NCBI GenBank assembly: GCA_030430565.1
Contig: JAUIKS010000004.1
Coordinates: 269,992-333,991, forward strand
Source: Polyangia bacterium
Lineage (GTDB): Bacteria; Myxococcota_A; Polyangia; Nannocystales; Nannocystaceae
Reading direction: 5' to 3'
DNA length: 64,000 bases
Part shown: piece after piece, positions 3,235 through 29,110 of the stretch
How the letters are laid out: every line of letters begins with the position of its first letter
Position numbering within the stretch: the stretch's first letter is position 1
The notes under the pieces: model-generated
Database searches by the model: none
Told to the model about the DNA's origin: nothing
The model's input: only the letters and a program-made list of their open reading frames with translations
Position numbers and translations under genes: made by a program

Positions 3235-6119
3235 TCGGCCGCGCGTCGCGGGGGCGTCGCGGGCTGCTGGCGCTCGTCGTCATCGCCGTGTTGGCGCTCC
3301 TCGTCGGCGCGGACGCGCGCGCGCAGGAGGTCGCGCCCGCGGCGGAGCCCGAGCGTGGCGCGACCGGGGCGCCGCCGCCCGATCCCTGCGACGTGATGTG
3401 GACGCTGACGCTGCTCGACGAGGACCAGCGCGCGCTCATGCACGACGCCTGCGAGCTGGGTCCCAAGCCCAGCGGCGAGCTCGCGGCCGCGATGGCGCGG
3501 CTGGCGAGCTCTCCGGGCTGGCACGCGGGCGCGCTCGCGCACCTGGTCCAGCCTGGCGGGAAGACCCGGTTCACGGCGGGCGCCGAGCAGCCGGCGATCG
3601 AGGACATCCAGACCTGGGTGCAGCTCAACGGCAAGGCCTTCGCGGCGCTGCCCGAGGGCGCGAGCGGGGCGCGTCGGAGCGCGGGTCTGCGCGCGCGCCC
3701 GGCGGTCCATCCAGATGACCCTTCAGGCAGCTGGGGGCCGCTGTCCGACGCCTGCGGGGAGATCCGGCACGGCGAGCTGATGCGCAGCTTCCTCGACAGC
3801 GTCGAGGCCGACGCGGCGCCCGAGGACCTGCCCTTCGACGCCGACTTCCTCGAGTGCGTCGGGGTCGACAGCGCCCGCCTGCGCGGGACGAGGGTGCTGA
3901 CGGTCCGCGCCGACGGCCTGACGAGCTTGACCGCGATCATCGGGACGCGGACCTACACGCACGTGCGGGTGTTCGACCGCGCGAGCGCGCTGAAGATCGG
4001 CAAGCACCGCTTTCACGTGCTGGTGGTCCCCGAGGCCGCGCCGGTCACGCTGGTCGGGCGACATCAGAACCTCGAGCTGCCGCTGTACTGGCACGCGATC
4101 GTCGGCCGCAACGAGGCGGTGTGGGTCGAGCCGGTGCACATGTCGTGCCTCGAGCTGAGCTACGTCGCCGACGACGACACGCGGCTGTACTTCGACGGCG
4201 TGCCGATCCAGGCGCGGGGCGTCAAGACGCGGCTGCCGGGCGCGACGCGGCGCGAGCGGACGCTGACGATCTCGCTCGACCAGGCCCGCGCGCGCCTCCC
4301 CGATCACGAGGTCGTCGCGCTCAAGCACGTCTGGGGGACGGCCGACGCGCCTGGCACATGGACCATCCGACACCGCGAGAGCCTGCCGGCCGCGGTCAAG
4401 CCCGCCGAGCTCACGCGCGCGCACGAGTGTCGGGTGCTGAGCCTCGACTTCAGCGAGCCGGCGAAGAAGCGCATCGCGGTCCTGGGCGTCTCGCAGGGCG
4501 AGAGCTGCCAGCACTCGCCGATGTGGGCGGATGACCTGCGCGAGCGCGTGCGCCGGGTGATCGAGGACGACCCGGCGCACCGCGAGCGTCGCCAGTACGC
4601 CAACTTCTCAGCCTACGCGGCCGCCGCGGACGCGCTCTCGGCTTTGAAGTCGCGGCTCAACCCGCAGGAGGGGCGCACCACCGGGGCCGAGACCGGGGCC
4701 GACGCGATGGCGCTGGTGGGGACGGCGGCGAAGGAGGCGTGGCGCCAGGGCATCGACACGCTGCTGTCCTTCGAGCTGCAGTGCTCGCCGCGGGAGCCGG
4801 CGCGCTCGCGGCCCAGCGCGCCGCCGCTGCCGGGGCGTGACACGAGCGAGTGGAGCTACTCGCTCAAGGCGACGCGCATCGACGTCCGCAGCCTGTTCGC
4901 GCGCGGCTACCACGGGCGCGAGAGCCTCGACCTCGAGCGCTTCATCCACGTCGAGTCGATCGGCTTCGAGTCCTCGCGCATTCAGGAGCCGGTGCTGACC
5001 GTGCTGCTCGACCGCGTGTTCGCGGTCGTCGGCGTCCGGTTCATCTCGGCCGCCTCGAGCGTGCCCTACCGCGCGTCGTTGATGGTGCGCGCGGGGGTGT
5101 ACTTCGACGAGACCGAGGGCGCGCACTCGTGGGGGATCCCGCTCGCGGTGGTCTCGCTCGGGCCGACCGCCGGCGTGACTTGGAGTCAGAAGCTCGTCGT
5201 CGAGGATGACGGCGGTCGCCGGGCGATCCGCACGCAGCGGCCGCAGATCTGCGAGCAGCTCGCCAGCCGGGGCGGGCTCGACGCGGCGACGCGGGCCGAG
5301 CTCGACCGGCTGCTCGGCGCGAAGTCGTCCGGCGTGGTCGTCGGGCTGCGCGAGAGCAGCCGCGCGATCGACCAGAGCACGAACCCCGCGGCGGCGGTCT
5401 ACGAGGGGGTGTTCCGCGCGCCGCGGCCGGGCTGGTACCTGCTCGCGCTGTCGAAGGAGGAGGCGATCTGCGTGCACGCGACCGCCGACCCCCGCGAGCT
5501 GTGGGGCGACATCGCGATCACCGGCGGCCCGCTGATGTTCGGGCTCAACAAGACCTTTGAGACAGGGACTGCGGCCAAGCTGTACCTGCGCAGCCGCTTC
5601 GGCGCGACCTGGTACAACGCGCGCGCGCGCTGGATCGGCTACGGCCTGTTCGGCGGCTTCGCGTTCACCGACTACCGGGGCGCGCGCTCGGACTGGTCGG
5701 ACCTCGGCGGGACCGCGGGCGGGACCGGCTCCGCGTCGGACGAGCAGCGGCTGTGGCGGCGCTTCTCGCTGCTGCTCGGCCCGATGCTCGAGTTCCGCTC
5801 GCGCGCGACCGCGGCCGAGATCGAGTTCCGCGCGCGGGTGTCCCCGGCGGTCAACCTCGGCGTCGTCGACCTCACGCGGATCCCGGCGGAGGCGGCCGAC
5901 TTTCGCCGGCGCAACGTCAACGACGGGGTGCTCGACGTGGACTTCGACGTCTTCGTCGATCTCGGCATGTCGGCGCCGGTCGGGCGGGTCGAGCTCGGCG
6001 GCGCGATCATGCTGGGCTACACGGGCATCGACGATCGGCTCGCGTTGTCGAGCACCACCGCCTTCGCCGACGCGAACCTGTTCGTCGGGGTCGGGCTGTT
6101 TCTGGGGGGGGCGAGATGA
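3231..6119 (+). CDS. Large secreted protein (about 960 aa), unknown function, C-terminal region beta-barrel-like
   Basis: The long ORF 2511..6119 is junk upstream of about 3230. A TTG at 3231 overlaps the CHAT stop (tTGA) and gives signal peptide IGRASRGRRGLLALVVIAVLALLVGADARAQE. GC3 is high throughout. The C-terminal 300 aa show alternating hydrophobic strands (WIGYGLFGGFAFTDY, RVELGGAIMLGYTG, LFVGVGLFLGG). The start codon is uncertain. Confidence 0.6.
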   Translation: MIGRASRGRRGLLALVVIAVLALLVGADARAQEVAPAAEPERGATGAPPPDPCDVMWTLTLLDEDQRALMHDACELGPKPSGELAAAMARLASSPGWHAGALAHLVQPGGKTRFTAGAEQPAIEDIQTWVQLNGKAFAALPEGASGARRSAGLRARPAVHPDDPSGSWGPLSDACGEIRHGELMRSFLDSVEADAAPEDLPFDADFLECVGVDSARLRGTRVLTVRADGLTSLTAIIGTRTYTHVRVFDRASALKIGKHRFHVLVVPEAAPVTLVGRHQNLELPLYWHAIVGRNEAVWVEPVHMSCLELSYVADDDTRLYFDGVPIQARGVKTRLPGATRRERTLTISLDQARARLPDHEVVALKHVWGTADAPGTWTIRHRESLPAAVKPAELTRAHECRVLSLDFSEPAKKRIAVLGVSQGESCQHSPMWADDLRERVRRVIEDDPAHRERRQYANFSAYAAAADALSALKSRLNPQEGRTTGAETGADAMALVGTAAKEAWRQGIDTLLSFELQCSPREPARSRPSAPPLPGRDTSEWSYSLKATRIDVRSLFARGYHGRESLDLERFIHVESIGFESSRIQEPVLTVLLDRVFAVVGVRFISAASSVPYRASLMVRAGVYFDETEGAHSWGIPLAVVSLGPTAGVTWSQKLVVEDDGGRRAIRTQRPQICEQLASRGGLDAATRAELDRLLGAKSSGVVVGLRESSRAIDQSTNPAAAVYEGVFRAPRPGWYLLALSKEEAICVHATADPRELWGDIAITGGPLMFGLNKTFETGTAAKLYLRSRFGATWYNARARWIGYGLFGGFAFTDYRGARSDWSDLGGTAGGTGSASDEQRLWRRFSLLLGPMLEFRSRATAAEIEFRARVSPAVNLGVVDLTRIPAEAADFRRRNVNDGVLDVDFDVFVDLGMSAPVGRVELGGAIMLGYTGIDDRLALSSTTAFADANLFVGVGLFLGGAR

Positions 6120-15400: not shown

Positions 15401-15808
15401 ATGACGGCGACAGAACATCTCGGGAAGCTGCAATTATCCATCATGCGCGTGCTCTGGTCGGCCGGCGAGGCCACCGTCAGCGACGTACACGAGGCGCTGC
15501 GTCACAGCCACGGCCTGGCGCCCACGACCATCGCCACGATGCTCAAGAAGATGGAGCGCAAGGGGGTCGTCTCGCACCGGACCGAGGGACGGCGCTTCGT
15601 CTACCGGCCGACGGTGAGCGAGGCGCTGGTCACCCGCTCGATGGTCACGGAGCTCGCCGAGCGCCTGTTCGACGGCGACAAGGTCGCGCTCGTCAGCCAC
15701 CTGCTCACGGCCCACGAGGTCGACGCGGATGAGCTGGCGGCGCTGCAGAGGAAGATCGACGCCGCGCGCCACGGCGCCGGTCAGGACGAGGATAAGGAGG
15801 AGGCGTGA
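15401..15808 (+). CDS. BlaI/MecI/CopY-family transcriptional repressor
   Basis: N-terminal winged-helix sequence LSIMRVLWSAGEATVSDVHEAL...TTIATMLKKMERKGVV is typical of penicillinase-repressor family proteins. The stop overlaps the start of the downstream M56 peptidase gene. Confidence 0.8.
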   Translation: MTATEHLGKLQLSIMRVLWSAGEATVSDVHEALRHSHGLAPTTIATMLKKMERKGVVSHRTEGRRFVYRPTVSEALVTRSMVTELAERLFDGDKVALVSHLLTAHEVDADELAALQRKIDAARHGAGQDEDKEEA

Positions 15809-18567
15809 TGACGGCTTGGATCTTCGATTGGCTGGCGACCTACTTCGTGCACAGCAGCGCGCTCTTGCTGCTCGCGCTCGCGGCTGACCGCTGGCTGCGG
15901 GCCCGGCCCGAGCTCGCGAGCGCGGTCTGGAAGACGGCGCTCGTGGCCGGCGTGGTCACGGCGAGCCTGCAGACCGGCGGCGTCATCGAGCCGCTCGGCG
16001 GCCGCTTCTACATCGACGTGGACGACGCGCGCGCCGTCGAGGCCGCGGGCGCGCCCGCGCTCGCGGAGGCCACGGCGATCTCGCCTGAGCCGCCCGGATC
16101 CGCGATCGAGGCCGCGATGGCGCGCTCGGCCCCCCGGGACGAGACCGAGACCGAGACCGCGACCGCGACCGTCACGATCGCGGACGCGGGCGCCGCGAAG
16201 GCGGTCTCGGTGGTCTCGACGAGCCAGGGGGAGACGGCGGTCGTCGAGCTGCGCGCGCCCGACGGGGGCGACGACGCGACGACGCGCGCGGTGTCGATCG
16301 TCGAGCAGCCGGCGGAGGCGGCGAGCGGCGCGGTCGCGATCGCCGCCGCGCCTGTCCAGACGGTCACGCGCGGCGCGGTCGCGGGGCTCGACTGGCGCGC
16401 GCTCGTGATCGGCGCGTGGCTGCTCGGCTGTCTGTTTGGACTGATCCGCGTGGCGCGGGCGTGGGTCCGGCTGACGCGTCAGCTCCGTGGACGGCGGACC
16501 ATCCGCGGCGGCTCGATCCGCGCGATCTTTGAGCGGCTGTGCCGCGTCGCGCGGGTCCCCGGGGTCCGGCTCTCGTGCACCCACCGGATCCACGTGCCGC
16601 TCGCGGCCGGCCTCGTGCGCCCCGAGATCTGCGTGCCGCGACGCGTGCTGCGGTCGCTCAGCCCGGCCTCGCAGGAGAGCCTGCTCGCCCACGAGCTCGC
16701 GCACGTGGTCCGGCGCGACCCGGCCTGGCAGCTGCTCGGCGCGCTGCTCGAGCGCGCGCTGTTCTTCCAGCCGCTCAACCGGATCGCGACGCGCAAGATC
16801 TCGAGCTACGCGGAGTACCTGTGCGACGCGTGGGCGGCCAAGCACACCCGCGAGCCGCTCGCGCTGGCGCAGTGCTTGACCGAGGTCGCGGCCTGGGCCG
16901 CGCACCAGCGCGGGCGCCTGCCGGTGCCGGCGATGGCGGGGCGGCCCTCGAGCCTGCTCGGCGCGCGGGTGCAGCGGCTGCTCGACATGTCGCAAAGGCC
17001 CGATGACCTGCTGAAGGCCAACGGTCGCCCGTGGGCGTCGGCGGTCGTGAGCGCGGGGATGTTCGGCGCGGTCGCGCTGGTCGCCCCCGGCGCGCTCGGC
17101 TCGGCTGGTGACGGCCATGAGCTCGGCTACGACTGCGGCGGTGAGTACGTCGCGATCGGGGTCCCGGTGGGTCCCGACGCGATCGGCCACGGGACCCGCC
17201 TCGCCGCGAGCGTCGGCGACGTGAGCCCCGGCGGCGCGACGCTGGCCGACTCCACCGTGCTCGTCGCCGACAACGCGCTCGCGGGCGCCGTCTCGGCGGT
17301 GGAGCGGTCGATCGGAGCCGTCTCGGCCGTCGCCGTGGCGGAGGCGAGCGCGGCCGACAGCCGCGAGCCGCGCGGCGTTGAGCGCGAGCGCAGGCGGCTC
17401 GAGCGGAAGCTCGACCGCGCGGCCCGACGCGCGCGCAAGAGCGCTGACCGGCAGCGCAAGCACGAGCGCGAGGTCCAGGCGACCCGGCGCTCGCTCGAGG
17501 CCGTCGCGGGCCGCGAGCGCGGCGAGCACCACGTCGTGCTCGACCTGCGCGGCGTGGAGCTCGACGACGTGGAGCGGCTGGCGGCCCGCGCCGCGATCGC
17601 CGGCCTCGAGGAGATGGAGCTCGACAACCTCGACCTCGAGGTCAAGATCGACGACTGCGACAGCGATCGCGGACGTCGGCACCGGCGCCGCAGCGAGTCG
17701 CCGCTGGTCTACCGCTACTCGAAGGGGGGCGACACCGTGACCATCACCGTCGATCCTGGCGGACAGGTCTGGCTGGAGTCGCCCGAGGGGACCAAGATCG
17801 AGCTCGGCGACCACTGGAGCGTCGAGCTCGAGGGCGCGGGGGTCCACGGCTGGACGCCGGCGCAGCGCGAGAAGATCGCCCAGGCCGAGCGGCGCATGCG
17901 GGCGCTCGAGCGGCGGGCCGACGCCCAGCATCACGCGGTCGAGCGTCACGTCTCGCGCGAGCTAGAGCGCGAGCTAGAGCGGGAGGCTCGTCGCCTCGAG
18001 GGCGAGGCGCGCGCCATCGAGCGCTCGCTCGAGGCGCGCGCGCGGTCGATGCAGCGGACCGCGGAGCGCCTGTCTCGAGAGACCAACGAGCAGACCCGCC
18101 GCGCGCTCGAGCGGGAGCTTCGCCGCGAGCGCGCCGAGCTGGAGCGCGAGGGCGAGGCGGCCCGCCGCCGGCTGACGCGCGACGCCGAGCAGCTTCGCCG
18201 TGAGGCCGAGCGCGCGCAGCGTGAGGCGATGAAGCGGATGACCGGCGAGGCGCAGGAGCGCGCCCGCGACGGAGCGGAGCGGGCGCGGCGGGAGGCCGAG
18301 CGGGCGCAGCGGGAGGCCGAGCGGGCGCAACGGGAGGCCGAGCGCGTGCAGCGAGACGCGGAGCGGGCGCGGCGGGAGGCCGAGCGAGTGCAGCGAGACG
18401 CGGAGCGGGCGCGAGGGGAGGCTGAGCGCGCGAGGTCGAAGCAGAAGTCGAAGGCAAAGTCGAAGCCGAAGGCGAAGTCGAAGTCGAAGGCGAAGTCGAA
18501 GCCGAAGACGAAGGCGAAGCCGAGGCCGGGCACGTTCACCGCGCCGCCGAGCGCAGGGCCGATCTAG
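15805..18567 (+). CDS. BlaR1/MecR1-like M56 family membrane metalloprotease with long C-terminal charged coiled-coil and Lys-rich tail (920 aa)
   Basis: N-terminal TM helices. HEXXH zinc motif in LLAHELAHVVRRDPAW. Strong SD aaggaggagg upstream. The C-terminal 350 aa are REAERAQ-type heptads ending in a (KSKAKSKP)n tail. Confidence 0.8.
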   Translation: MMTAWIFDWLATYFVHSSALLLLALAADRWLRARPELASAVWKTALVAGVVTASLQTGGVIEPLGGRFYIDVDDARAVEAAGAPALAEATAISPEPPGSAIEAAMARSAPRDETETETATATVTIADAGAAKAVSVVSTSQGETAVVELRAPDGGDDATTRAVSIVEQPAEAASGAVAIAAAPVQTVTRGAVAGLDWRALVIGAWLLGCLFGLIRVARAWVRLTRQLRGRRTIRGGSIRAIFERLCRVARVPGVRLSCTHRIHVPLAAGLVRPEICVPRRVLRSLSPASQESLLAHELAHVVRRDPAWQLLGALLERALFFQPLNRIATRKISSYAEYLCDAWAAKHTREPLALAQCLTEVAAWAAHQRGRLPVPAMAGRPSSLLGARVQRLLDMSQRPDDLLKANGRPWASAVVSAGMFGAVALVAPGALGSAGDGHELGYDCGGEYVAIGVPVGPDAIGHGTRLAASVGDVSPGGATLADSTVLVADNALAGAVSAVERSIGAVSAVAVAEASAADSREPRGVERERRRLERKLDRAARRARKSADRQRKHEREVQATRRSLEAVAGRERGEHHVVLDLRGVELDDVERLAARAAIAGLEEMELDNLDLEVKIDDCDSDRGRRHRRRSESPLVYRYSKGGDTVTITVDPGGQVWLESPEGTKIELGDHWSVELEGAGVHGWTPAQREKIAQAERRMRALERRADAQHHAVERHVSRELERELEREARRLEGEARAIERSLEARARSMQRTAERLSRETNEQTRRALERELRRERAELEREGEAARRRLTRDAEQLRREAERAQREAMKRMTGEAQERARDGAERARREAERAQREAERAQREAERVQRDAERARREAERVQRDAERARGEAERARSKQKSKAKSKPKAKSKSKAKSKPKTKAKPRPGTFTAPPSAGPI
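18238..18535 (+). repeat. Degenerate 21-bp (heptad) repeats encoding (R/E)EAERAQ, followed by a 24-bp-type repeat encoding KSKAKSKP
   Basis: Direct reading of gagcgggcgcagcgggaggcc... units, then tcgaaggcgaagtcgaagccgaag units. Confidence 0.75.
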
Positions 18568-19661: not shown

Positions 19662-22600
19662 CTAGCCACCCGGCAGCAGCGGCTCGCAGATCGCGGCCGC
19701 GTCGGGGTAGCGCTCGCCGAGGCGCTTGAGGCGCTGACACCCGATCCGTGTTAGCGCGGAGGGGGGGATTGGCCACGTCGAGCGACCGTCGGGCTCGCGC
19801 AGCACGATGCGGTCCGCGAGGTCCACGAGCAGCGCGCCGGAGGTCGGGTCCCAGATCTTCGCGGTCTTGTCTTTGCCGGCGGAGATCAGGAACCGGTCGT
19901 CCGGCGAGAAGTCAAGCGCGGTAATGTCGATCTCGTGGCCCGCGAGCGTCGCTATCGGGGAGCCGGTGGAGGCGTCCCATACGCGCACCATGTTGTCCTG
20001 CCCCGCGGTCGCGATGCGTGCGCCGTCCCCCGAGTAGACCACGGTGGTGACCGCGTTCGTGTGTCCCTTCAGGGTGGCGACCGGTAGTCCCGAGGCCACG
20101 TCCCAGATCCGCGCGGTCGAGTCGAAGCTCGCGGTCGCGATGCGTGCGCCGTCCGGCGAGAAGGTCACCGATCGGACCACATCCTGGTGTCCGCTCAGCT
20201 CGTTGATGAGCTCGCCGGTGGAGGCGCTCCAGACCCGCGCGGAACGGTCCGCGCTGCCGGTCGCTACGCGCGTGCCGTCCGGTGATACAGCCAGGGCCCA
20301 GATAGCGTTCTCGTGGCCGGTGAGCGTGGCCACGGACTCGCCCGAGCGGGCGTCCCAGATCCGCGCGGTCTTGTCGAAGCCCACGGTGAAGAGGCGAGCG
20401 TCGTCCGGTGAGAAGGCCGTCCGCCAGACGACCCACTCGTGGCCCGAGAGCGTCGACTGGAGCTCGCCCGTTCGCGCGTCCCAGATCCGCGCGGTGCCGT
20501 CCACGCCAGTGGACGCGAGCCGGTCGCCGGCGTGAGAGAACACGACCGATATGACCTCGCCCTCGTGACCGGTGAGCACAGCTAGTGACGCGCCGGTGGC
20601 CACGTCCCAGATCCGCGCCGTGCCGTCGTCACTGGCGGTAGCGAGGCGGGCGCCATCCGGTGACATGGCCATGTTCGTGATGCCCTTGATCGGGCCGCGT
20701 AGCTTCATCAGCGGCGCACCCGAGGCGGCGTCCCAGATCCTCACGGTGTCGTCGCGGCCAGCGGTAGCGACGCGGGCGCTGTCCGGAAAGAATATCGCCG
20801 CGAAGACGGTGTGCTCGTGCGCCCGCGCTGTGGTGACCACCTCGTCGATGCTCGGGCTCCAGATACGGACCGTCTTGTCCTGACTACCGGTAGCGATGTG
20901 AGAGCCATCCGGTGAGTAGGTCAGCGCGAACAGGTTAGAGCTGTGGCCGCGGAGGGTGGCCACGGCCCGGCCCGAGCGGGCGTCCCAAACCCGCGCCGTC
21001 CGATCGAAGCCCGCGGTCGCAATATGGGCGCCGTCCGGTGAGTAGGCGATCGCGGTGACGAATTTGTCATGGCCCGAGAGCGTGGCGATCGGCTGGCCGG
21101 TGGTGGCGTCCCAGATCCGCGCGGTCGAGTCGAAGCTCGCGGTAGCGATGCGGGCGCTGTCTGGCGCGAAGGCCAGCTTCTCGACGCGGTTTTGGTGGCC
21201 GCGGAGCGTGGTGACGAGGCGACCCGAGGGCAGCTCCCAGACGCGCGCGGTGCTGTCCCCGCTCGCGGTCGCGACGCGGGCGCTGTCCGGTGAGAACGCG
21301 AGCGCCGGGATCGATTCGTCATGACCGCGGAGCGTGGCCACAGGCCGGCCCGAGGCCGCGTCCCAGATGCGCGCCGTGGTGTCCCGACTGCCGGTGACGA
21401 GATGGGCGCCGTCGGGCGAATAGGCCACCGTCACGACCGCGTCCTCATGACCGCGGAGCGTAGCGACCAGGCGGCCGGTGGCCACGTCCCAGATGCGCGC
21501 CGTCTTGTCCTCGCTGGCGGTCGTGACGCGGGCGCCGTCCGGGGCGTAGGCCAGCGTCCAGACGCGGCTCTCATGGCCACGGAGCGTCGTGATCGGCGCG
21601 CCGGTGCGGGCGTCCCAGATCCTCGCGGTGTGGTCGAAGGCCGCGGTCGCGAGGCGGGCGCCGTCCGGAGAGAAGGCGACGCCCCAGACCTCCTCCTCGT
21701 GGCCCTCGATCGTGGCGATGACCTGGCCGGTCGCCGCGTCCCAAATGCGCGCCGTGTGATCCCCGCTCGCGGTCGCGAGGCGGGCGCCGTCGGGTGAGTA
21801 CGCGAGCGCCCAGATGTCGCGATCGTGTCCCTCGAGGGTGAGCGTCGGGGTGATGATCTGGGCGTCGTTCGCGAGCACGTGCGCGAGCGCGTCGGTGGCC
21901 TCGGGCGGCGGCGGCGACTCCCACTCCGGCGCGTAGGCGCCGACGGCCTGGACCGCGAGCGCGAGCGCCTCGCCCTCGCGGTTCTCGGGGATCAGCATCT
22001 TCGCCCGCAGCCCGCGCTGGGCGCTGAGCAGCCGCTTCTGCGCGCGCTTCTCGGCGTCGAGCTGCGCGTACTGCTGCTCGACGAGGCGCTTTTGCTGCTC
22101 GACGGTCTGCTTCTCGCTCCGCAGATCTCGCTCGCTGGCGACGGCGCGACGCCACTGGACGGCCGCGAGCGCGCTGAGCACCCCCATGACGATCAGCCCA
22201 GAGGCGAGCGCCGCCACCATGCGCCGCGCGCGGGCCCATCGCTGCTGACCCTCGATCGTCTCGATCAGCACGCGCACGGATTCGAAGCGTCGCGCGGGGT
22301 GGGTCTCGAGCGCGCGCTCGAGCGCGCGGCGCAGCCAGGCCGGGACGCTGCTGCCCGAAGGAGCAGGTCTTCGCTGACCGGTCGTGACCGCGCGCTTGAG
22401 CTCGGCGAAGGTCGCGCCGGCGAAGGCGCGCTCGCCGTAGAGCGCCTCCCACATCGTGAGCGCGAGCGCGAACTCGTCGGTGCGCTCGTCGACGCGGGCG
22501 CCGAGGAATTGCTCGGGGGCCATGTACGACGGCGTGCCGATGACCGCGCCCGCGGCCGTCAGCTCGACGGAGAGCGCGAGCGAGGCCTCGTCGAGGCGCG

Positions 22601-23429
22601 CCTCCTCGATCGCCTCGTCCGAGCGCGCGAGCCCGAAGTCCATGACGCGCGCGCGGCCGTCGTCGTCGACCATGATGTTTTCGGGCTTGATGTCGCGGTG
22701 AAGCAGACCCTCGGCGTGCGCGGCCGCGACGCCCCGCGCCGCCTGCAAGATGACCGAGAGGACTTGTCGCCAGCGCGGCCGCTCGTCCGCGATCCAGGCG
22801 CCGAAGGTGCGCCCCGCGACGAGCTCCATCGAGAGCCAGATCTGCCCGTGGTGCGTGCCGACGTCATGGACCGCGACCACGTTCGGGTGCGCGAGCTTGG
22901 CGAGCGCCTGGGCCTCGCGCTCGAGCCGGATGTTCGCGTCGTTGTGGCCGCCTCGGATCAGCTTGACCGCGACCTCGCGATCGAGGCGCGGATCGTAGGC
23001 GGCGTAGACGATCCCCATGCCGCCCGCGCCGAGCGTGCGCAGGATCCTGAGACGCCCGACGCGCTCGTCGACGGCGAGCGGCGCCTGCGGAGTCTGCGGT
23101 GCGCCGTCGCTCGTGGGGAGGGTGCTCGCGCGGGCGATCGCGGTGGCGACGCTGTCGCCGAGTGACGCCTCGCGCGGCTCGATCGCGCGGGCGGCCGCGA
23201 CCGTGTTGTCGAGCGCGTCGACGCGCGCGGCGACGGTCTTGTCGACGTCGACCGCGATCGCGGCCCCTTGGTGCTCGATGGTCTCGTCGACCGCGTGCTC
23301 GGCGGTGCGGCGGTCGCCGTCGAGCGTCGGCTCGTGCGCCGGAGGTCGCCGGGACGCGCTGGCGCGAGGTGACGCGCGACGCCGCGGCGTGACGCGCGTG
23401 GCGTCGACCTGGTCGGAACTATCTGCCAC
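19662..23429 (-). CDS. Ser/Thr protein kinase fused to a long WD40 beta-propeller array (1255 aa)
   Basis: Kinase motifs: Gly-rich loop GAGGMGIVY, VAVK lysine, catalytic loop HRDIKPENIM, DFGLA, APE. A TM segment follows. More than 14 WD40 repeats carry recurring TARIWD/SGH motifs. Confidence 0.85.
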   Translation of the reverse strand: MADSSDQVDATRVTPRRRASPRASASRRPPAHEPTLDGDRRTAEHAVDETIEHQGAAIAVDVDKTVAARVDALDNTVAAARAIEPREASLGDSVATAIARASTLPTSDGAPQTPQAPLAVDERVGRLRILRTLGAGGMGIVYAAYDPRLDREVAVKLIRGGHNDANIRLEREAQALAKLAHPNVVAVHDVGTHHGQIWLSMELVAGRTFGAWIADERPRWRQVLSVILQAARGVAAAHAEGLLHRDIKPENIMVDDDGRARVMDFGLARSDEAIEEARLDEASLALSVELTAAGAVIGTPSYMAPEQFLGARVDERTDEFALALTMWEALYGERAFAGATFAELKRAVTTGQRRPAPSGSSVPAWLRRALERALETHPARRFESVRVLIETIEGQQRWARARRMVAALASGLIVMGVLSALAAVQWRRAVASERDLRSEKQTVEQQKRLVEQQYAQLDAEKRAQKRLLSAQRGLRAKMLIPENREGEALALAVQAVGAYAPEWESPPPPEATDALAHVLANDAQIITPTLTLEGHDRDIWALAYSPDGARLATASGDHTARIWDAATGQVIATIEGHEEEVWGVAFSPDGARLATAAFDHTARIWDARTGAPITTLRGHESRVWTLAYAPDGARVTTASEDKTARIWDVATGRLVATLRGHEDAVVTVAYSPDGAHLVTGSRDTTARIWDAASGRPVATLRGHDESIPALAFSPDSARVATASGDSTARVWELPSGRLVTTLRGHQNRVEKLAFAPDSARIATASFDSTARIWDATTGQPIATLSGHDKFVTAIAYSPDGAHIATAGFDRTARVWDARSGRAVATLRGHSSNLFALTYSPDGSHIATGSQDKTVRIWSPSIDEVVTTARAHEHTVFAAIFFPDSARVATAGRDDTVRIWDAASGAPLMKLRGPIKGITNMAMSPDGARLATASDDGTARIWDVATGASLAVLTGHEGEVISVVFSHAGDRLASTGVDGTARIWDARTGELQSTLSGHEWVVWRTAFSPDDARLFTVGFDKTARIWDARSGESVATLTGHENAIWALAVSPDGTRVATGSADRSARVWSASTGELINELSGHQDVVRSVTFSPDGARIATASFDSTARIWDVASGLPVATLKGHTNAVTTVVYSGDGARIATAGQDNMVRVWDASTGSPIATLAGHEIDITALDFSPDDRFLISAGKDKTAKIWDPTSGALLVDLADRIVLREPDGRSTWPIPPSALTRIGCQRLKRLGERYPDAAAICEPLLPGG

Positions 23430-23573: not shown

Positions 23574-24896
23574 TCACGGCAAGGGCTTGACGCGCGACGC
23601 GTAGCGGTCGTCGTCGCGGGCTCGGACCACCGCGTCGTCGAACAGCGCCAAGATCATCCGCAGCCGCGCCGAGCCGGGATCGTTCGGGCGCTCGCGGACC
23701 GCCGCGCGCACGGCCGCGTGGGTCACGAGCAGGGTCCGCTCGAGGGTGAGCGCGGCGGCCTCGTCGTCCGCGAGCGCGCGGCGGAGCAGGGCGTCGACCG
23801 CAGCTCGTGGAGCGCTCTTCTGCGCGCTCTTCTGCGCGCTCTTCTGCGCGCTCTTCTGCGCGCTCTTCTGCGCGCTCTTCTGCGCGCTCTTCTGCGCGCT
23901 CGTCCCGAGCAGCGTCGGCAGCTGCCAGCTCGTGAGCTGCTGACCGGCGGGGATCGTCAGCGCGCCGAGGTCGGGGTGCTCCAGCGTGACGGCCGCTTTG
24001 CCGGTCTCGATCATGTCGAGGCGACCGAGCCGCGCGCGCTCACCCGGCGCGGCGCTGGACTCCGCGCCGTCACGGATCACGGTGAGCGGCGCGGAGCCTG
24101 GCGCGACGGTCAGCTCGATGATCACGCTGCGCGACCAGGTGCCGGCGTCGGCGCGGTTGAGGTGACGCGCCAGCGCGGCGCTGACCATCGCGTCGCGTCG
24201 GCGCTCGCGCCAGCCGGGGGGCGGCGCGGCCTTGCTGCGCCACGGCACGAACTCGACGTCGCGCAGCTCCGCGCGCGCGCGCGTCTGGGCCACGGCGACC
24301 CGCGCGTGGTAGCGCAGGCGCTTCAGCAGCGTGCGCCGAGCGGCGCGCCCCTTCCAGTCGCCGGGCGCGGGCGTGTGCTCGAGGTGTCCCCAGAGGAAGG
24401 CGACGACCCAGTCGTCGAACAGCCCGTGGCCCTCGAGCTCGTCGAGCGCGTCGATCAGCGCGCCGTCGTCGACGGGCGGGGCGGCGCGCCCGGCCGCGCG
24501 AGCGCGGAGCTCGGCGTCGATCAGCGCGCGCAGCTTGGCCGGGAGGACGCCGGAGAGCGCCCGCTCGACCTCCGCGAGCTCTGGCCCGGCGAGCGTGCGG
24601 CCGTCGTAGAGCACACGCGAGAGCGCGCGGCGGACAACCGGGTCGCGGACGCGGGCGGCGGCCGCCTCGAGCTGGGCCTCGGTGAGCTGGGGTCCGACGC
24701 CCAGCAGGGGCGGGCGCTCGATGTCGGGCAGGCGCGCGGGCTTGGGCGGCGGCGCGGCCTCGACCTCCTCGCCGCCCAGCAGCGCGACCTGCAGCAGCGC
24801 GACGCCGTGGACCAGGCGCGCGCCCCAGCGGCTGCGCAGGACCCGAGCGCGCGGGCGGAGGCGCCGGGCCCAGGGCCGCGAGCGCGCGCCGCTCAC
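23574..24896 (-). CDS. Hypothetical Cys-free protein (about 441 aa) with (SAQK)7 tandem array, overlap-coupled to the radical SAM gene
   Basis: The frame has high GC3 downstream of the rSAM stop. A GTG at 24896 overlaps the rSAM TGA (GTGA). The N-terminal about 30 aa are Arg-rich, so the true start may be further in (e.g. GTG giving VLYDGRTL...). No Cys residues in the whole protein. Confidence 0.5.
   Translation of the reverse strand: MSGARSRPWARRLRPRARVLRSRWGARLVHGVALLQVALLGGEEVEAAPPPKPARLPDIERPPLLGVGPQLTEAQLEAAAARVRDPVVRRALSRVLYDGRTLAGPELAEVERALSGVLPAKLRALIDAELRARAAGRAAPPVDDGALIDALDELEGHGLFDDWVVAFLWGHLEHTPAPGDWKGRAARRTLLKRLRYHARVAVAQTRARAELRDVEFVPWRSKAAPPPGWRERRRDAMVSAALARHLNRADAGTWSRSVIIELTVAPGSAPLTVIRDGAESSAAPGERARLGRLDMIETGKAAVTLEHPDLGALTIPAGQQLTSWQLPTLLGTSAQKSAQKSAQKSAQKSAQKSAQKSAQKSAPRAAVDALLRRALADDEAAALTLERTLLVTHAAVRAAVRERPNDPGSARLRMILALFDDAVVRARDDDRYASRVKPLP
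23812..23895 (-). repeat. Perfect 12-bp tandem repeat gcgctcttctgc x7 (minus strand encodes SAQK x7)
   Basis: Direct reading: seven identical units with no mismatches. Confidence 0.9.
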
Positions 24897-26002
24897 CGTC
24901 CACCCCCGGCGCGCAGGGTCACGAGGCCATCTGACCGTTGGGATAGGTTGGTGCGCGCCGGCAGCAACGGGTCGGCGAAGAACGCCGGGCCGCGGCACGA
25001 GTGGTTGTTGCGGGTCTGCAGCCAGCAGTCGAGGCCGTCCGAGCGCCGCGCGTCGCCGGGCGTGCGGAACGCCGTGAAGCCCTGGGCCCAGATGTCGCGC
25101 AGCCGCCGGTCGCGGATGTTGCCCTGGCTCTCGCGCTTGTCGGTGGTGGTGCAGGGCATGACCTCGCCGGTCGCCGAGACCACGCAGACGAAGCGCCCCG
25201 CGCCGCAGAGGAACGGCTGGTCGCGGTAGAAGCAGTCGTCGGCGCCGGCGCTGCCCCACTCGTTGTCGCACTCGACGTGGATCCGACCGCGCAGTCGCCT
25301 CACGAGCGCGGCCGCGCGCCGCAGCTGCGCGGGCGTAGCGAGCAGCGCCTCGCGGTGGTGGTCGGCGCGCCCCTCGGGCGTCACGAGGTGCAGCCCCCAG
25401 GAGTCGGCGCCGGAGTCGAGGATCGTCGGGATCATGTCGGCGAGCAGGTCGGCGTTCTCGCGCGTCACGGTGGTGCCCGCGACGACCTCGGGGCAGCCGA
25501 TCTGCTTGAGCGCCGCGATCGCGCGCACGGCCGCGTCGAAGCTGCCGGCGCGCCCGCGGAAGCGGTCGTGGTACGCGCGCGGACCGTCGAGGCTGACCGC
25601 GACCATCACCGGCGTGTAGCGCTCGAACAGCGGCAGCAGGTGCTCCACGCGGCCGCCGTGGGTGTGCAGCGCCCAGGGGACGCGGTGGCGCGCGGCGTGG
25701 GCGACGATTCGCTCGAGGTCGCGGCGCAGCAGCGCCTCGCCGCCCGCGATCACGAGGTTGGGGCGATCGAGCGCGACGAGCTCGTCGATGAGCAGCTCGC
25801 AGGCCTCCGCGGCCGTCAGCTCGCCGGGCTCGCGGCGGCCGGCGTGCGAGTAGCAGTGCGGGCACTTGAGGTCGCAGGCCGAGGTGCTGATCCACTGCAC
25901 CGCGTGGGGCGGGCGCGCGTACCCTAGCCGATGGAGCAGCCGCGTCTCGGCCTGCCAGACCGCCGCGGCGTTGCGTGAGAACAGACGGTGGAGCAGTCCC
26001 AT
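24893..26002 (-). CDS. Radical SAM / SPASM-domain peptide-protein maturase (369 aa from ATG; GTG alternative at 26011)
   Basis: CX3CX2C motif ISTSACDLKCPHCYSH. C-terminal SPASM-type Cys cluster CGAGRFVCVVSATGEVMPC ... C ... C. Confidence 0.85.
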   Translation of the reverse strand: MGLLHRLFSRNAAAVWQAETRLLHRLGYARPPHAVQWISTSACDLKCPHCYSHAGRREPGELTAAEACELLIDELVALDRPNLVIAGGEALLRRDLERIVAHAARHRVPWALHTHGGRVEHLLPLFERYTPVMVAVSLDGPRAYHDRFRGRAGSFDAAVRAIAALKQIGCPEVVAGTTVTRENADLLADMIPTILDSGADSWGLHLVTPEGRADHHREALLATPAQLRRAAALVRRLRGRIHVECDNEWGSAGADDCFYRDQPFLCGAGRFVCVVSATGEVMPCTTTDKRESQGNIRDRRLRDIWAQGFTAFRTPGDARRSDGLDCWLQTRNNHSCRGPAFFADPLLPARTNLSQRSDGLVTLRAGGGR

Positions 26003-26338
26003 GCGCTCCACCGTACGTGGTGTTCGCGGCGCGTGGGGGCGCCGCGCGACGCTTTGACGAGAGTTTTACGCGCGCGCGGACCCGCGCGCCGGCGTCGACG
26101 CCTCGCGGCTGCAGGCCGACGAGGCCGCCCAGCTTTTTCCGCGCGGGCGGATAATTTTCGCTTCGGTGGTGACTCCTCTCTCAGAGGCGTGAAGACGCGT
26201 AACAACACTGGCCCGGCCGCCAATGGGTCTCTCGAGCGGTCTGGCCGTTATGGCCAAGAGGCCACGTTCTCCGCGGCTCGCGTCTCGGAGCGTCGAGCTC
26301 CGGTGAGCGTGACGGCGACTGGGGGGTCAGCCGTCACC

Positions 26339-26971
26339 TCACCGGGCCTCGTCGATCTTGTCGCGCAGCTGCCGGGCCCAGCCGGCGAGGTCGGTCATCG
26401 TCGAACGATACTCCTCGGGGCTCGCCGAGAGCCGCTCGACGATCACTGCGAGCCGCTCTTTGCCGCGGCGCAGGCGGCTGTGCACGGTCCCGGTCGGGAT
26501 CCCGAGCAGCTCCCCGATCGCGCGGCCGGTCAGGCCCTCGAACATGTTGAGCTCGAGCGCGATCTGGTACTCGATCGGGATCGAGCGCAGCGCCTGGACC
26601 AGCAGGGTGGTCTCGCGCTTCTTCGCGATCATCGAGGTCATCGTGTGCGCGCGATCGAGGTCGGCGGTGCAGAAGTCGACGAAGTCGTCGCGCTCGCGCC
26701 CGCGCTTTCGCTTCTTGCGGTAGTAGCCGCGCAGCTGGTTGAGCGCCGTCGCGAACAGGTAGCTGCGGAAGCTCTTCCCCTTGCGGATGCTCTCCTTGTT
26801 CTTCGTGCAGGCGAGCAGCGTCTCGGAGATCAGGTCCGCGACATCCTCGGGGTCCGCGACCTTGTTGTGGAAGAAGCGCGAGAGGATGCCGAAGTAGCGC
26901 TCCAGCAGCTTATTGCCGGAGCGCTTGTCACCGCTGATCCAGCGCTCGAGGAGCTCCCAGTCTTCCTCCAT
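26339..26971 (-). CDS. ECF-family RNA polymerase sigma factor (sigma-70 regions 2 and 4)
   Basis: Region 2: ISETLLACTK...YLFATALNQLRGYYRKK. Region 4: YQIALELNMFEGLTGRAIGELLGIPTGTVHSRLRRGKERL. Confidence 0.85.
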   Translation of the reverse strand: MEEDWELLERWISGDKRSGNKLLERYFGILSRFFHNKVADPEDVADLISETLLACTKNKESIRKGKSFRSYLFATALNQLRGYYRKKRKRGRERDDFVDFCTADLDRAHTMTSMIAKKRETTLLVQALRSIPIEYQIALELNMFEGLTGRAIGELLGIPTGTVHSRLRRGKERLAVIVERLSASPEEYRSTMTDLAGWARQLRDKIDEAR

Positions 26972-27087: not shown

Positions 27088-28083
27088 GTGAGTGCGCGGC
27101 GTCGGGGTGATCGCTCGTCGAGCGCGCGGGTGGAGCGCCTCGTCGAGCGCCTCTCGTCCCAGCCGGGCGCGGGTCTCAGCGTCTTCGCGATCGACCACGA
27201 CGCCATGCTCGACCGCGTGCGCGCCCGCCTGTTCGGCGCCGCCTCGTCGCCGGAGGGCCGCGGGCCGCGGACGCGGGTCGGGCGATTCGAAGTCACGCGG
27301 CGGATCGGCGCGGGCGCGGCCGGGGTCGTGTTCCTGGCGCGCGACCTCGAGCGCGGCCGCGACGTCGCGCTCAAGCTGCTCCGGCCGTGGTTTCGCGGCG
27401 ACGCGGCGCTGCGCCGCGCGGCGCTGGAGGTGCGCCTCCGGGCCGCGGCGACGGAGCGCGCACCGGGCCCGCGCGTGATCCCGATCCGCGCCGTCGGCCG
27501 CGCGCGCGGGCGCCTCTTCATCGCCATGGATCACTTCGACGCGCGCCCGCTCCCGCGCTGGATCGCGGCGCGGCGACGCGCGACGCGGGCGATCATCGAC
27601 GTGTTCAAACAGGCAGGTCAGGGCCTCGCCGAGCTCCACGCCGCCGGCCTCGCGCACGGGACCTTCACGCCCGCTGCGGTCCTCGTCGCCGACGACGGCG
27701 CGGCGCGGGTGACCGAGCTGGCGCGCGCCGCGTTGCTCGAGCTCCCCGGAGGATCGCTCAGCGCCACGCAGCGCGCCGCGCTGACGGGCGCGACCCGCTA
27801 CCTCTCGCCCGAGGAATTGACGGGGCGCGAGCGAGACGCCCGCAGCGATCAGTTCCGGTTCTGCGTCGCGCTCTACGAGGCGCTCGTCGGGGCGCCCCCC
27901 TTCGGCGGCGCGACCCTCGACGAGCTGGTGCTGCGCGTGACTCGAGGGCAGCGCGAGCGACCGCCGCGTGAGCACGAGCTGCCTACGCGGGTGCTCGGCG
28001 TCATCGCCCGCGGGCTCGAGCCGGATCCCGGCGAGCGCTGGCCGACGATGCGCGCGCTGCTGTCCGCGCTCGACCGCAGCTAG
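27088..28083 (+). CDS. Ser/Thr-kinase-like pseudokinase (331 aa), divergent from the ECF sigma gene
   Basis: Gly-rich loop IGAGAAGVVF and VALK lysine are present. The catalytic loop is LAHGTFTPAAV (no HRD Asp) and the DFG is replaced by TELARA, so the protein is predicted inactive. Confidence 0.7.
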   Translation: MSARRRGDRSSSARVERLVERLSSQPGAGLSVFAIDHDAMLDRVRARLFGAASSPEGRGPRTRVGRFEVTRRIGAGAAGVVFLARDLERGRDVALKLLRPWFRGDAALRRAALEVRLRAAATERAPGPRVIPIRAVGRARGRLFIAMDHFDARPLPRWIAARRRATRAIIDVFKQAGQGLAELHAAGLAHGTFTPAAVLVADDGAARVTELARAALLELPGGSLSATQRAALTGATRYLSPEELTGRERDARSDQFRFCVALYEALVGAPPFGGATLDELVLRVTRGQRERPPREHELPTRVLGVIARGLEPDPGERWPTMRALLSALDRS

Positions 28084-28123
28084 CCCGCTTGCGCGCGCCC
28101 GCCGGTGACGGTAATTGTTAGGA

Positions 28124-29110
28124 ATGTTACGTAAGATCGTCGCGTCGCGTAGTGTTTTGCTCGCTACGGCGCTGGCCGCCTGCGGGCCGTCGACGGGGGA
28201 GAGCGCGACCCTGGGCGCGACCAGCGAGCAGGGCGCGAGCAGCTCGACGGGGGTCGATAGCGCCAGCGCCGGCGCCGTGACCGGCGCGAACTCGACGAGC
28301 GGCACGAGCGGCCCATCGACGACCTCGAGCACCACCGCCGACGCGACGAGCTCGCCCATGGAGACCACCGCCGACACGGTCCCCGACACCGACGACTGCG
28401 ACTTCATCTGCGAGACCTCCGGCCCGACCGAGGAGCCGTGGGCGTGCTCGCCGAGCGAGAACGACTGCCCGCCGCGCGACGGCCAGCCGCAGAAGTGCGT
28501 GTTCTACGTGCCACAAAACGGCTCCCTGCGGCGCGAGGGCACGCGGTGCATCCCCGTCACCGGCGACAAGGGGCCCTACGAGCCGTGCAGCTTACCGACC
28601 GGGATCGGGCCCGAGATCAGCGACGACTGCGACGGCAGCGGCTACTGCCTCGAGGTCTACGGGACCGCCGACCACGGATTCTGCGCGCCGTACTGCGAGC
28701 CGGGGTTTGGCTGCGACGCGTACCCGGGCGCGAGTCACTCGCAGGAGAACGGCTCGAGCTTCCCCGAGGCGTGCCTGTACGGCGACTGCGATCCGGCCGA
28801 TCCGCAAGCTTGCCCCGAGGACATGCGATGCGTGTTCTACCCTGCGTGGCTCTACGACGCGACGCAGTGCTGGAAGGTCCCCGAGGGCGGGCTCGAGCTG
28901 GGCGCGAGCTGTGACTACGGGCAGTGCGCCCCGGGGCTGCTGTGCGTACGCGATGACTACGCCAACGGCTGCCAGAGCGAGCGCTGCTGCGTCGAGTGGT
29001 GCGACAAGCAGAGCCCGAGCTGCGCCGACCCGGGCAGCAGCTGCGAGGGCACCTGGGCCGGCGTCAACGCCGACCTGGGCGCGTGCGTGATCCCGGGCTC
29101 GACGGAGTAG
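28124..29110 (+). CDS. Cys-rich lipoprotein (328 aa)
   Basis: MLRKIVASRSVLLATALAACG lipobox, a Ser/Thr-rich linker, then about 30 Cys in a C-terminal domain. Confidence 0.65.
   Translation: MLRKIVASRSVLLATALAACGPSTGESATLGATSEQGASSSTGVDSASAGAVTGANSTSGTSGPSTTSSTTADATSSPMETTADTVPDTDDCDFICETSGPTEEPWACSPSENDCPPRDGQPQKCVFYVPQNGSLRREGTRCIPVTGDKGPYEPCSLPTGIGPEISDDCDGSGYCLEVYGTADHGFCAPYCEPGFGCDAYPGASHSQENGSSFPEACLYGDCDPADPQACPEDMRCVFYPAWLYDATQCWKVPEGGLELGASCDYGQCAPGLLCVRDDYANGCQSERCCVEWCDKQSPSCADPGSSCEGTWAGVNADLGACVIPGSTE

Follow-up and report, generated by a model that had tools for sequence, protein, structure and literature searches.

The radical SAM gene and its neighbour X

In a 64,000-nt stretch of DNA from a Polyangia bacterium, analysed as a whole and termed the window here, a gene for a radical S-adenosylmethionine (radical SAM) enzyme is followed directly by a gene for a second protein, termed X. 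It is very probable that the two form an autonomous, co-inherited module in which X is the dedicated partner of the enzyme, and that the (SAQK)7 array carried by X is an incidental, recent insertion in a surface loop. The pairing is regarded as genuine because X adjoins the radical SAM gene at every orthologous locus with downstream DNA, the two proteins co-diverge, and natural fusions of the two exist. Both genes of the module lie on the minus strand.

24893-26002, minus strand: radical SAM gene, ATG at 26002 and stop at 24893, 369 aa
23574-24896, minus strand: X gene (partner protein), GTG start at 24896, 440 aa (441 codons with the stop)

The GTG of X overlaps the TGA of the radical SAM gene by 4 bp (GTGA). 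The overlap coupling described in an earlier note on this DNA is borne out both by the sequence and by an independent gene call on a Logan assembly, where the radical SAM gene and the next gene overlap in the same way. The GC content at third codon positions (GC3) is 0.90-1.00 across the radical SAM frame and switches at ~24900, while the X frame displays values of 0.90-0.98 from ~24900 down to 23600, in agreement with the view that this 1.3-kb downstream frame is clearly coding. Furthermore, homologues of X align from the N-terminus. The product was described as a 441-aa protein free of cysteine; there is indeed no Cys, and the length is 440 aa, 441 being the codon count with the stop. No frame with coding-like GC3 was found in the 336-bp spacer upstream of the radical SAM gene, a region already thought to lack an open reading frame (ORF) with native codon usage. 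A protein identical to the radical SAM enzyme of the window is public (P0004), present on a 473-kb NCBI contig and in the Logan assembly.

Thirteen orthologous loci were examined. In all 12 of those having downstream DNA, a homologue of X lies directly downstream of the radical SAM gene, the sources being Nannocystaceae, Polyangia and Myxococcales metagenome-assembled genomes (MAGs) together with Planctomycetota, Pirellulales and Phycisphaeraceae. In three Planctomycetota/Polyangia contigs the gene after the radical SAM gene has no Pfam match, yet it is homologous to X (phmmer 1e-63 to 6e-28). When the ORFs of the 13 loci were clustered all against all, only three real conserved groups were obtained, namely the radical SAM enzyme, X and their antisense shadows. 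When 87 proteins from the neighbourhood were scanned with Pfam, no family recurred besides lineage-local ones. Small ORFs within 1.2 kb of the 13 loci were likewise never common to more than two closely related loci, which upholds the earlier observation that a precursor-peptide gene is absent.

Moreover, at least nine clusters (50% identity) are fusions of 687-817 aa, with the radical SAM enzyme at the N-terminus and X at the C-terminus. Two of these were checked at the DNA level, on contigs of 184 kb and 57 kb, and stand alone among unrelated genes. Pairwise identities of the radical SAM enzyme and X across loci are correlated (r = 0.86), with medians of 65% and 36%, respectively, so that X evolves about twice as fast as the enzyme. 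Substrates and precursors usually evolve faster than their enzymes. The module was defined as a radical SAM ortholog of at least ~60% identity with the conserved motifs, followed by or fused to an X with W-x-x-K and R-L-D; in the window the enzyme carries the ortholog motifs, and X lies directly downstream with both W-x-x-K and R-L-D. The earlier note had proposed the downstream protein as a partner or possible substrate and had called for a synteny check of the pair. The status of dedicated partner is borne out by the adjacency at 12 of 12 loci, by the correlation of identities and by the fusions.

A full-text literature search retrieved no paper describing the pair. A radical SAM enzyme of maturase type with a dedicated partner is of a known kind; what is distinctive here is a partner of unknown fold from a family without a curated model, a link predicted to span the membrane, and the natural fusions.

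Two loci depart from the simple arrangement. In L015, two tandem copies of X follow the radical SAM gene (1715-3361 and 3383-4675), the first of which has PRPRSTSIGPRRNW instead of W-x-S-K; the contig was binned as 'Candidatus Nealsonbacteria', but its sequence is Planctomycete-like. In the closest relative locus, L001/L017 from a Myxococcales MAG, where the radical SAM enzyme is 88% identical to that of the window, X is split (3527-4785) into a 90-aa ORF overlapping the radical SAM stop and a 329-aa ORF in another frame, representing either a frameshift from an assembly error or a pseudogene.

Cysteines and relatives of the radical SAM enzyme

Judged by its sequence, the enzyme belongs to the radical SAM superfamily, possessing both the CX3CX2C motif and a Pfam Radical_SAM match (PF04055, 73.1 bits against a cut-off of 29.5). 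Two regions are of interest for cluster binding.

25853-25876, minus strand: CX3CX2C motif (CDLKCPHC), C43/C47/C50, ligands of the radical SAM [4Fe-4S] cluster (translation)
24995-25207, minus strand: auxiliary-cluster region, residues 266-336, C266-x6-C273-x10-C284 ... C326-x9-C336 (alignment and translation)

In an alignment of 123 homologues, C43, C47 and C50 are 100% conserved. Beyond this triad only C266, C273 (94%), C284, C326 and C336 (91%) are conserved, and C245 and C257 are not. The seven-Cys pattern of a SPASM domain is CX9-15GX4C ... CX2CX5CX3C ... C. Its first half is present in the enzyme as CX13GX4C (C266...G280-x4-C284), and the Pfam SPASM match (PF13186, 32 bits against a cut-off of 21.5) spans residues 266-317 only. 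The CX2CX5CX3C block is absent from the family among the same 123 homologues, with C326-x9-C336 in its place. A SPASM domain binds two auxiliary clusters and the truncated Twitch domain binds one (PMC10114670). Membership of the full SPASM class was rejected on these grounds, and the enzyme looks Twitch-like, with one auxiliary cluster, because only five auxiliary Cys are conserved and CX2CX5CX3C is missing. The canonical CX3CX2C described in the earlier note therefore stands, while its 'SPASM-type' auxiliary cluster was overstated: the set is incomplete, and five conserved auxiliary Cys fit a single cluster.

Other conserved motifs of the enzyme are AVQW, VPWAxHTHGG, EWGSAG, CTTTD and DCWLxTR. 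The radical SAM core starts at about residue 35, so that the N-terminal extension amounts to only ~35 aa and is too short for a RiPP recognition element (RRE), RiPP denoting a ribosomally synthesised and post-translationally modified peptide. Conservation extends to the first ~30 residues (MGLLHRLFSRNAAAVWQAETRLLHRLG), which are helix-like and precede the core; they might serve in binding to the membrane or to the Arg-rich segment of X described below.

More than 280 homologues of the enzyme were found at 60-88% identity, of which the best 120 range from 64 to 76% with coverage of at least 83% of the length. Planctomycetes, Pirellulales and Phycisphaerales MAGs are among the named sources. In species-representative genomes, a scan located carriers in Nannocystaceae, Polyangia and Myxococcales MAGs and in Planctomycetota, Planctomycetaceae and Phycisphaeraceae MAGs.

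The subfamily comparison suggested in the earlier note was carried out with NCBIfam. The enzyme matches 60 radical SAM models there, and figures are given from the best 25 of the 60, all of which fall far below their cut-offs. The top matches are TIGR04053, MftC and TIGR04133 'rSAM_w_lipo', at ~123 bits against cut-offs of 265-425; the best full-length alignments are those to the MftC, TIGR04133, GDL-peptide, StsB and PqqE maturases. No well-characterised subfamily was thus identified. The earlier note had held that the pairing would be undermined if the enzyme belonged to a well-characterised subfamily with its substrate elsewhere, or if the downstream gene were not conserved; the enzyme is placed in no characterised subfamily, and X is conserved beside the orthologues. 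Among solved structures the closest is SkfB (PDB 6efn; 4e-17 with the single sequence and 2e-25 with the family profile), followed by CteB, PqqE and anSME. In PADLOC, the enzyme displays generic radical SAM core similarity to pVip only (4e-10 for the window enzyme and 6.5e-14 for the fusion P0203), and X has no match. An anti-phage, viperin-like role was rejected, the similarity to pVip being generic.

The partner protein X

Word-indexed searches gave only three and then five relatives of X, and a full hidden Markov model (HMM) scan of 1.84 billion representatives was needed to reveal the family, which comprises 208 clusters at E <= 1e-3. X has no match in Pfam or NCBIfam, and its profile has none among PDB sequences at E <= 1. 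A model obtained with AlphaFold2 from an alignment of 69 sequences reached a predicted local distance difference test score (pLDDT) of 83 and a predicted template modelling score (pTM) of 0.78. It consists of a helix at residues 23-41, a disordered Pro/Ala-rich linker (42-72), a helical domain (73-256), a small beta domain (260-315) and C-terminal helices (363-420). The following regions of X are referred to below.

24771-24896, minus strand: X residues 1-42, Arg-rich segment (RVLRSRW...) and then hydrophobic helix 23-41, predicted signal-anchor or transmembrane helix (AlphaFold2)
24216-24248, minus strand: conserved loop VPWRSKAAPPP with W219 and K222, candidate modification or functional site (conservation in 152 sequences)
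24015-24023, minus strand: R292-L293-D294 motif in the small beta domain (R 99%, L 95%, D 95% in 152 sequences)
23634-23663, minus strand: conserved C-terminal helix LRMILALFDD (R413 91% in 152 sequences; L416 at least 90% in the 69-sequence alignment)
23812-23901, minus strand: (SAQK)7 array, 12-bp unit, 7.5 copies, 100% identical (TRF)

It can be observed that 55 of 69 members begin with two hydrophobic segments around an Arg-rich loop with the consensus VLRGRxSPRxVR. The myxobacterial forms and all fusions retain only the Arg-rich segment and the second helix, and the myxobacterial helices are weakly hydrophobic (KD19 1.2-1.7). By the positive-inside rule, the Arg-rich segment would be cytoplasmic and the folded domain extracytoplasmic, because across the family the loop carries a net charge of ~+3.2 and the 25 aa after the second helix carry ~-1.5. 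In the fusions the Arg-rich segment runs straight on from the C-terminus of the radical SAM enzyme, which fits a cytoplasmic location of this segment. No consistent A-x-A signal-peptidase pattern was found after the second helix.

Conservation within X is concentrated at a few sites. In 152 sequences the near-invariant positions are W219 (99%), K222 (97%) and W254 (97%), together with R292-L-D, R199 and R413. W219 and K222 lie on the peptide VPWRSKAAPPPGWR, within a loop of consensus P-W219-x-S-K222-A-(A/G)-P that is modelled as coil between two long helices (pLDDT 69-79). The family consensus at the C-terminus is lR..L.lfdd. In many members this is where the protein truly ends, several homologues stopping at ...LFD[DEH]. 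A metagenomic member of 617 aa (P0179) carries C-terminal ankyrin repeats (Ank_2, 1.3e-18) after the LFDD end. Members of the family contain 0-3 Cys, none of them conserved. The earlier exclusion of Cys-based chemistry on the window protein consequently extends to the whole family.

The (SAQK)7 array occupies residues 333-360 of X. It is real, in frame and made of seven perfect repeats, as had been described; the functional weight given to it is not sustained. The array is absent from all ~150 relatives, including a Myxococcales MAG orthologue of 58-62% identity. In 141 of 152 members the segment matching residues 330-366 measures 7 aa, and only in the window protein does it reach 36 residues. 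In the model, the array has a pLDDT of 54-59. Its expansion would be very recent because the DNA units are 100% identical, and it is best described as a lineage-specific slippage insertion tolerated in a surface loop, not as a conserved substrate motif. That the array is the functional target of Lys/Ser/Gln radical chemistry, as the earlier note had suggested, is scarcely credible. In its favour, the array is perfectly regular, and Lys is a known target of radical SAM crosslinking in other systems (PMC9055067, PMC11851443). Against it stand the short equivalent loop of the homologues, the recent expansion, the low model confidence of the region and the conservation of the enzyme family regardless of the array. 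Judging from the aligned sequences, this proposal is effectively refuted by the comparative data.

Neighbouring genes and regulatory context

The order on the minus strand is the extracytoplasmic function (ECF) sigma gene, the 336-bp spacer, the radical SAM gene, X, a gap of 145 bp and a WD40 Ser/Thr kinase gene. A divergent kinase-like gene lies on the other strand.

26339-26971, minus strand: ECF sigma-70 family factor gene (TIGR02937, 79 bits; Sigma70_r2 and r4_2)
26295-26345, minus strand: strong RNA hairpin over the ECF sigma stop codon (minimum free energy -40.8 kcal/mol, z = -5.5, 0 of 200 shuffles as stable)
26054-26079, minus strand: 26-nt element CCGCGCGCGCGTAAAACTCTCGTCAA, 52-77 nt upstream of the radical SAM ATG (conserved island against L017, the spacer being otherwise diverged)
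19662-23429, minus strand: WD40-repeat Ser/Thr kinase, 1255 aa, HRD and DFG motifs intact
27088-28083, plus strand: divergent kinase-like gene, HGT replacing HRD and ELA replacing DFG

The product of the last of these genes may reasonably be considered a pseudokinase from its motifs. The flanking genes named in the earlier note, an ECF sigma gene, a WD40 kinase of active type and a divergent pseudokinase, are all present. Its suggestion that this context implies regulated expression did not hold for the module. The context of ECF sigma and kinase genes is confined to the window and its closest relatives, L001/L017 and a Logan contig (L026); the sigma gene is found upstream in these only and is absent in L003, L005 and L007. 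Moreover, the hairpin separates the sigma and radical SAM genes, where it possibly acts as a terminator or attenuator. Sigma-dependent regulation is possible in the lineage of the window and is not a property of the module. The 26-nt element is a candidate promoter or operator, and a simple scan for an ECF-type or sigma-70 promoter upstream of the radical SAM gene found none.

Several further genes were observed around the module. In L001 an extra 179-aa lipoprotein gene (1585-2124, plus strand) lies between the sigma and radical SAM genes, its product having a lipobox (LAAAC), a linker rich in Ser, Thr and Gly, and a C-terminal domain rich in Cys. Beyond the pseudokinase, the window encodes a lipoprotein of 331 aa with a similar layout (28115-29110, plus strand). 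Neither lipoprotein has a Pfam or NCBIfam match. The window also encodes a 920-aa protein with a BlaR1-type M56 peptidase domain (15805-18567, plus strand; 1.6e-18), and in L001 a 930-aa gene of M56-like type is located just after X, with a Penicillinase_R (BlaI) repressor gene before it. The porphobilinogen deaminase gene (hemC) follows the module in one Planctomycete lineage (L005 10486-11556; L006 3317-4423), and a gene for an ABM-domain protein precedes it in a Pirellulales MAG (L003 5132-5503). These two neighbours are the only hints of tetrapyrrole metabolism from gene context, and they are not recurrent.

The role of X

We tentatively favour the view that X is the protein client of the radical SAM enzyme, by analogy with AtsB and its sulfatase or with QhpD and QhpC, the latter pair being a precedent for a radical SAM enzyme that acts on a protein client. 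The enzyme and X would be made in fixed proportion via the GTGA overlap. The enzyme would then generate the 5'-deoxyadenosyl radical, which would abstract hydrogen from X in the exposed, near-invariant P-W219-x-S-K222-A-(A/G)-P loop. The modification installed would be independent of Cys, most plausibly a C-C crosslink or an oxidation involving Trp and/or Lys. X would subsequently be inserted or exported by means of the Arg-rich segment and the hydrophobic helix, and its folded domain would work outside the cytoplasm. What the sequences show is the pairing, the fusions, the conserved motifs and the lack of both a peptide precursor and conserved Cys; whether X undergoes modification, where and by which chemistry, and how it lies in the membrane are matters of inference. 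A client role would account for a module that is autonomous, for a partner that evolves faster than the enzyme yet keeps a few residues constant, and for the kinship of the enzyme with maturases of peptides and proteins.

A number of points weigh against a client role. The positive-inside rule places the domain of X outside the cytoplasm, so that a cytoplasmic Fe-S enzyme would need to act before translocation. A twin-arginine-like motif (RR-x-phi-phi) occurs in only 11 of 69 members, and twin-arginine (Tat) export of a folded, already modified X was rejected as a general feature. Fusion through a hydrophobic helix is met more typically between the subunits of an enzyme than between an enzyme and its substrate. 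At 60-76% across phyla, the enzyme is conserved to an unusual degree, as small-molecule enzymes typically are too, and the scattered invariant residues and compact fold of X suggest an activity of its own. An AlphaFold2 model of the fusion P0203 gave a pTM of 0.54 and no confident docking of the W-x-x-K loop in the radical SAM barrel, the radical SAM half having been built from nine true alignment rows plus noise; with this shallow, noisy alignment the pLDDT was below 50 over the cluster-binding regions. The more specific proposal, that a radical modification such as a Trp-Lys crosslink or a protein-derived cofactor is installed in the W-x-x-K loop before or during export, with the two proteins coupled via the membrane helix, is on the whole unlikely. 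If true, it would represent a protein-level counterpart of streptide and darobactin chemistry and define a new class of radical SAM-matured envelope proteins in Planctomycetota and in marine or soil Myxococcota.

Only slightly less probable is the alternative that X is not a substrate and instead serves as the integral-membrane subunit in a radical SAM enzyme or sensor that spans the membrane. Here, the Arg-rich juxtamembrane segment and the helix would tether the enzyme to the inner face of the membrane, the periplasmic domain of X would bind a ligand or envelope component or regulate the enzyme, and the substrate would be ubiquitous, either membrane-associated or soluble (for instance a lipid tail, a polyprenyl-linked intermediate, a quinone or a tetrapyrrole). 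Such an arrangement better explains the fusions through the helix, the location of the domain outside the cytoplasm and the high conservation of the enzyme. The fusions join the C-terminus of the enzyme to X via the retained hydrophobic helix, which is the usual pattern of subunits; the charge analysis leaves only the Arg-rich loop inside; and the enzyme is very highly conserved while X drifts. Translational coupling would give a 1:1 stoichiometry, an autonomous module without pathway genes nearby fits a ubiquitous substrate, and the conserved Arg, Lys and Trp of X are typical of ligand binding. Some radical SAM enzymes of the SPASM/Twitch type are known to act on membrane lipids, among others in Planctomycetes (Gms, PMC11214058). 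However, the loop and helix of X, which would contact the enzyme, are not as well conserved as the distal W/K and RLD motifs; a subunit role does not explain why these motifs are the best-conserved parts of X, and the weak hydrophobicity of the myxobacterial helices also speaks against a membrane subunit. Tes, Grs and Gms, the known lipid enzymes, do without a partner of this kind and are encoded among lipid genes, whereas no lipid genes are present at these loci, and neither fold nor family gives any hint that X binds or catalyses.

Some RiPP systems have unlinked precursors, and the enzyme could accordingly be a RiPP-type maturase whose precursor is unlinked or too small or variable to detect, with X as an accessory in export, immunity or scaffolding. 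The best NCBIfam and PDB similarities are indeed to peptide maturases, and X has a predicted membrane anchor. This explanation is nonetheless quite improbable, given that the 13 loci share no conserved small ORF within 1.2 kb, that a core beginning at about residue 35 leaves no room for an RRE, that 60-76% identity over two phyla is atypical of RiPP maturases, that the fused genes stand alone among unrelated neighbours, and that X lacks transporter or protease features. A RiPP maturase with an adjacent precursor was rejected outright, from the small-ORF result and the short N-terminal extension. Less probable still is a divergent tetrapyrrole enzyme (AhbD/NirJ-like) or another small-molecule radical SAM enzyme with a chemistry to which X is unrelated. 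Some homologues are named 'AdoMet-dependent heme synthase' by JGI, the AhbD and NirJ models match at 1e-29 to 1e-33, and the hemC and ABM-domain genes lie beside the module in L005/L006 and L003. Against this, the scores are 94-116 bits (AhbD 116, then NirJ, NirJ1 and NirJ2) where the cut-offs are at least 500, and the AhbD, NirJ, NirJ1 and AhbC models align to the N-terminal core only. Heme genes are not recurrent neighbours, and the strict pairing and fusions with X would be left unexplained. AhbD/NirJ membership was rejected on the scores far below 500 bits and on the restriction of adjacent hemC to L005/L006.

SPASM/Twitch radical SAM enzymes are a main source of new peptide chemistry, and very few are known to mature whole proteins. 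The existence of the present module is unsurprising, as many radical SAM families are uncharacterised. It is clean, self-contained and phylogenetically broad, with ~200 sequence clusters in two phyla, and it offers just one plausible candidate for a dedicated client or partner, a Cys-free protein of unknown fold with a predicted membrane anchor. The SAQK repeat is misleading, since conservation in X lies elsewhere, in the W-x-x-K loop and in RLD. If X is modified, the result would be a new radical modification at the protein level and an additional family of envelope proteins, defined for two phyla with much unexplored biology. Should X be a subunit, the module would encode a radical SAM enzyme that, unusually, spans the membrane. 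The natural fusions provide a one-gene test system.

Comparison with known systems

Gms, the GMGT synthase, is a lipid-bridging radical SAM enzyme of the SPASM/Twitch subfamily with homologues in Planctomycetes (PMC11214058). It resembles the present enzyme in its broad subfamily, in acting at the membrane and in occurring in Planctomycetes. Its homologues were gathered at lengths of at least 400 aa and cluster in bacteria with tes or mss (PMC11214058), whereas the window enzyme has 369 aa and no lipid genes nearby. On length and gene context, identity as a Gms lipid synthase is not supported. TIGR04133 'rSAM_w_lipo' is among the three best NCBIfam matches and aligns over the full length (122.5 bits); its short name presumably points to a radical SAM/SPASM enzyme paired with an exported lipoprotein, a reading taken from the name, and would then be a comparable pairing of an enzyme with an exported protein. 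However, the score is far below the cut-off of 425, and X has neither a lipobox nor an NCBIfam match.

SkfB makes a Cys-to-Met thioether in a small peptide and has an N-terminal peptide-binding extension. The present system differs in having no Cys substrate and no peptide, and the TIGR04403 model gives 69 bits against a cut-off of 300. SkfB has been described as a radical SAM-Twitch enzyme with a single auxiliary cluster (PMC10114670), which is in keeping with the Cys count of the window enzyme. MftC and PqqE align over their full length among the top NCBIfam matches and form C-C bonds independently of Cys, as a Cys-free client would need. Nevertheless, the second half of the SPASM domain is missing in the window enzyme, and there is no MftA/MftB or PqqA/PqqD neighbour at the loci. 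Membership was rejected for MftC (TIGR03962, 123.1 bits against 265, with no conserved small ORF or other neighbour) and for PqqE (85 bits against a cut-off of 381).

Proteins of the radical SAM-SPASM class can join Trp to the side chain of Lys or Arg without Cys (PMC9055067, PMC11851443). The only near-invariant pair in the loop of X, W219 and K222, recalls the Trp-Lys and Trp-Arg crosslinkers StrB/SuiB, DarE, WgkB and WprB. The substrates of these enzymes are short peptides with W-x-K, W-G-K or K-x4-W spacing, whereas X has W-x-x-K inside a protein of 400 aa. Membership of the Trp-Lys crosslinker family was rejected, as the WgkB model NF050035 gives 57 bits against a cut-off of 650.

AtsB, a radical SAM enzyme of the SPASM class, matures a whole exported sulfatase encoded next to it (PMC10114670). 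The anSME enzyme differs from the window enzyme in having the full SPASM set of 7-8 Cys and two auxiliary clusters, where the window enzyme has five conserved auxiliary Cys. The client differs as well, X being no sulfatase and lacking both the C/S-x-P-x-R motif and any conserved Cys, and AtsB systems are not known to show fusions that run across a hydrophobic helix. Membership of anSME/AtsB was rejected, with no anSME model among the best 25 of the 60 NCBIfam matches and no Sulfatase Pfam match for X. In terms of function, AtsB/anSME with its sulfatase would still offer the best analogy for the module, for in both a SPASM/Twitch-class radical SAM enzyme stands beside a full-length exported protein, without a small precursor, and in AtsB systems that protein is the one matured (PMC10114670).

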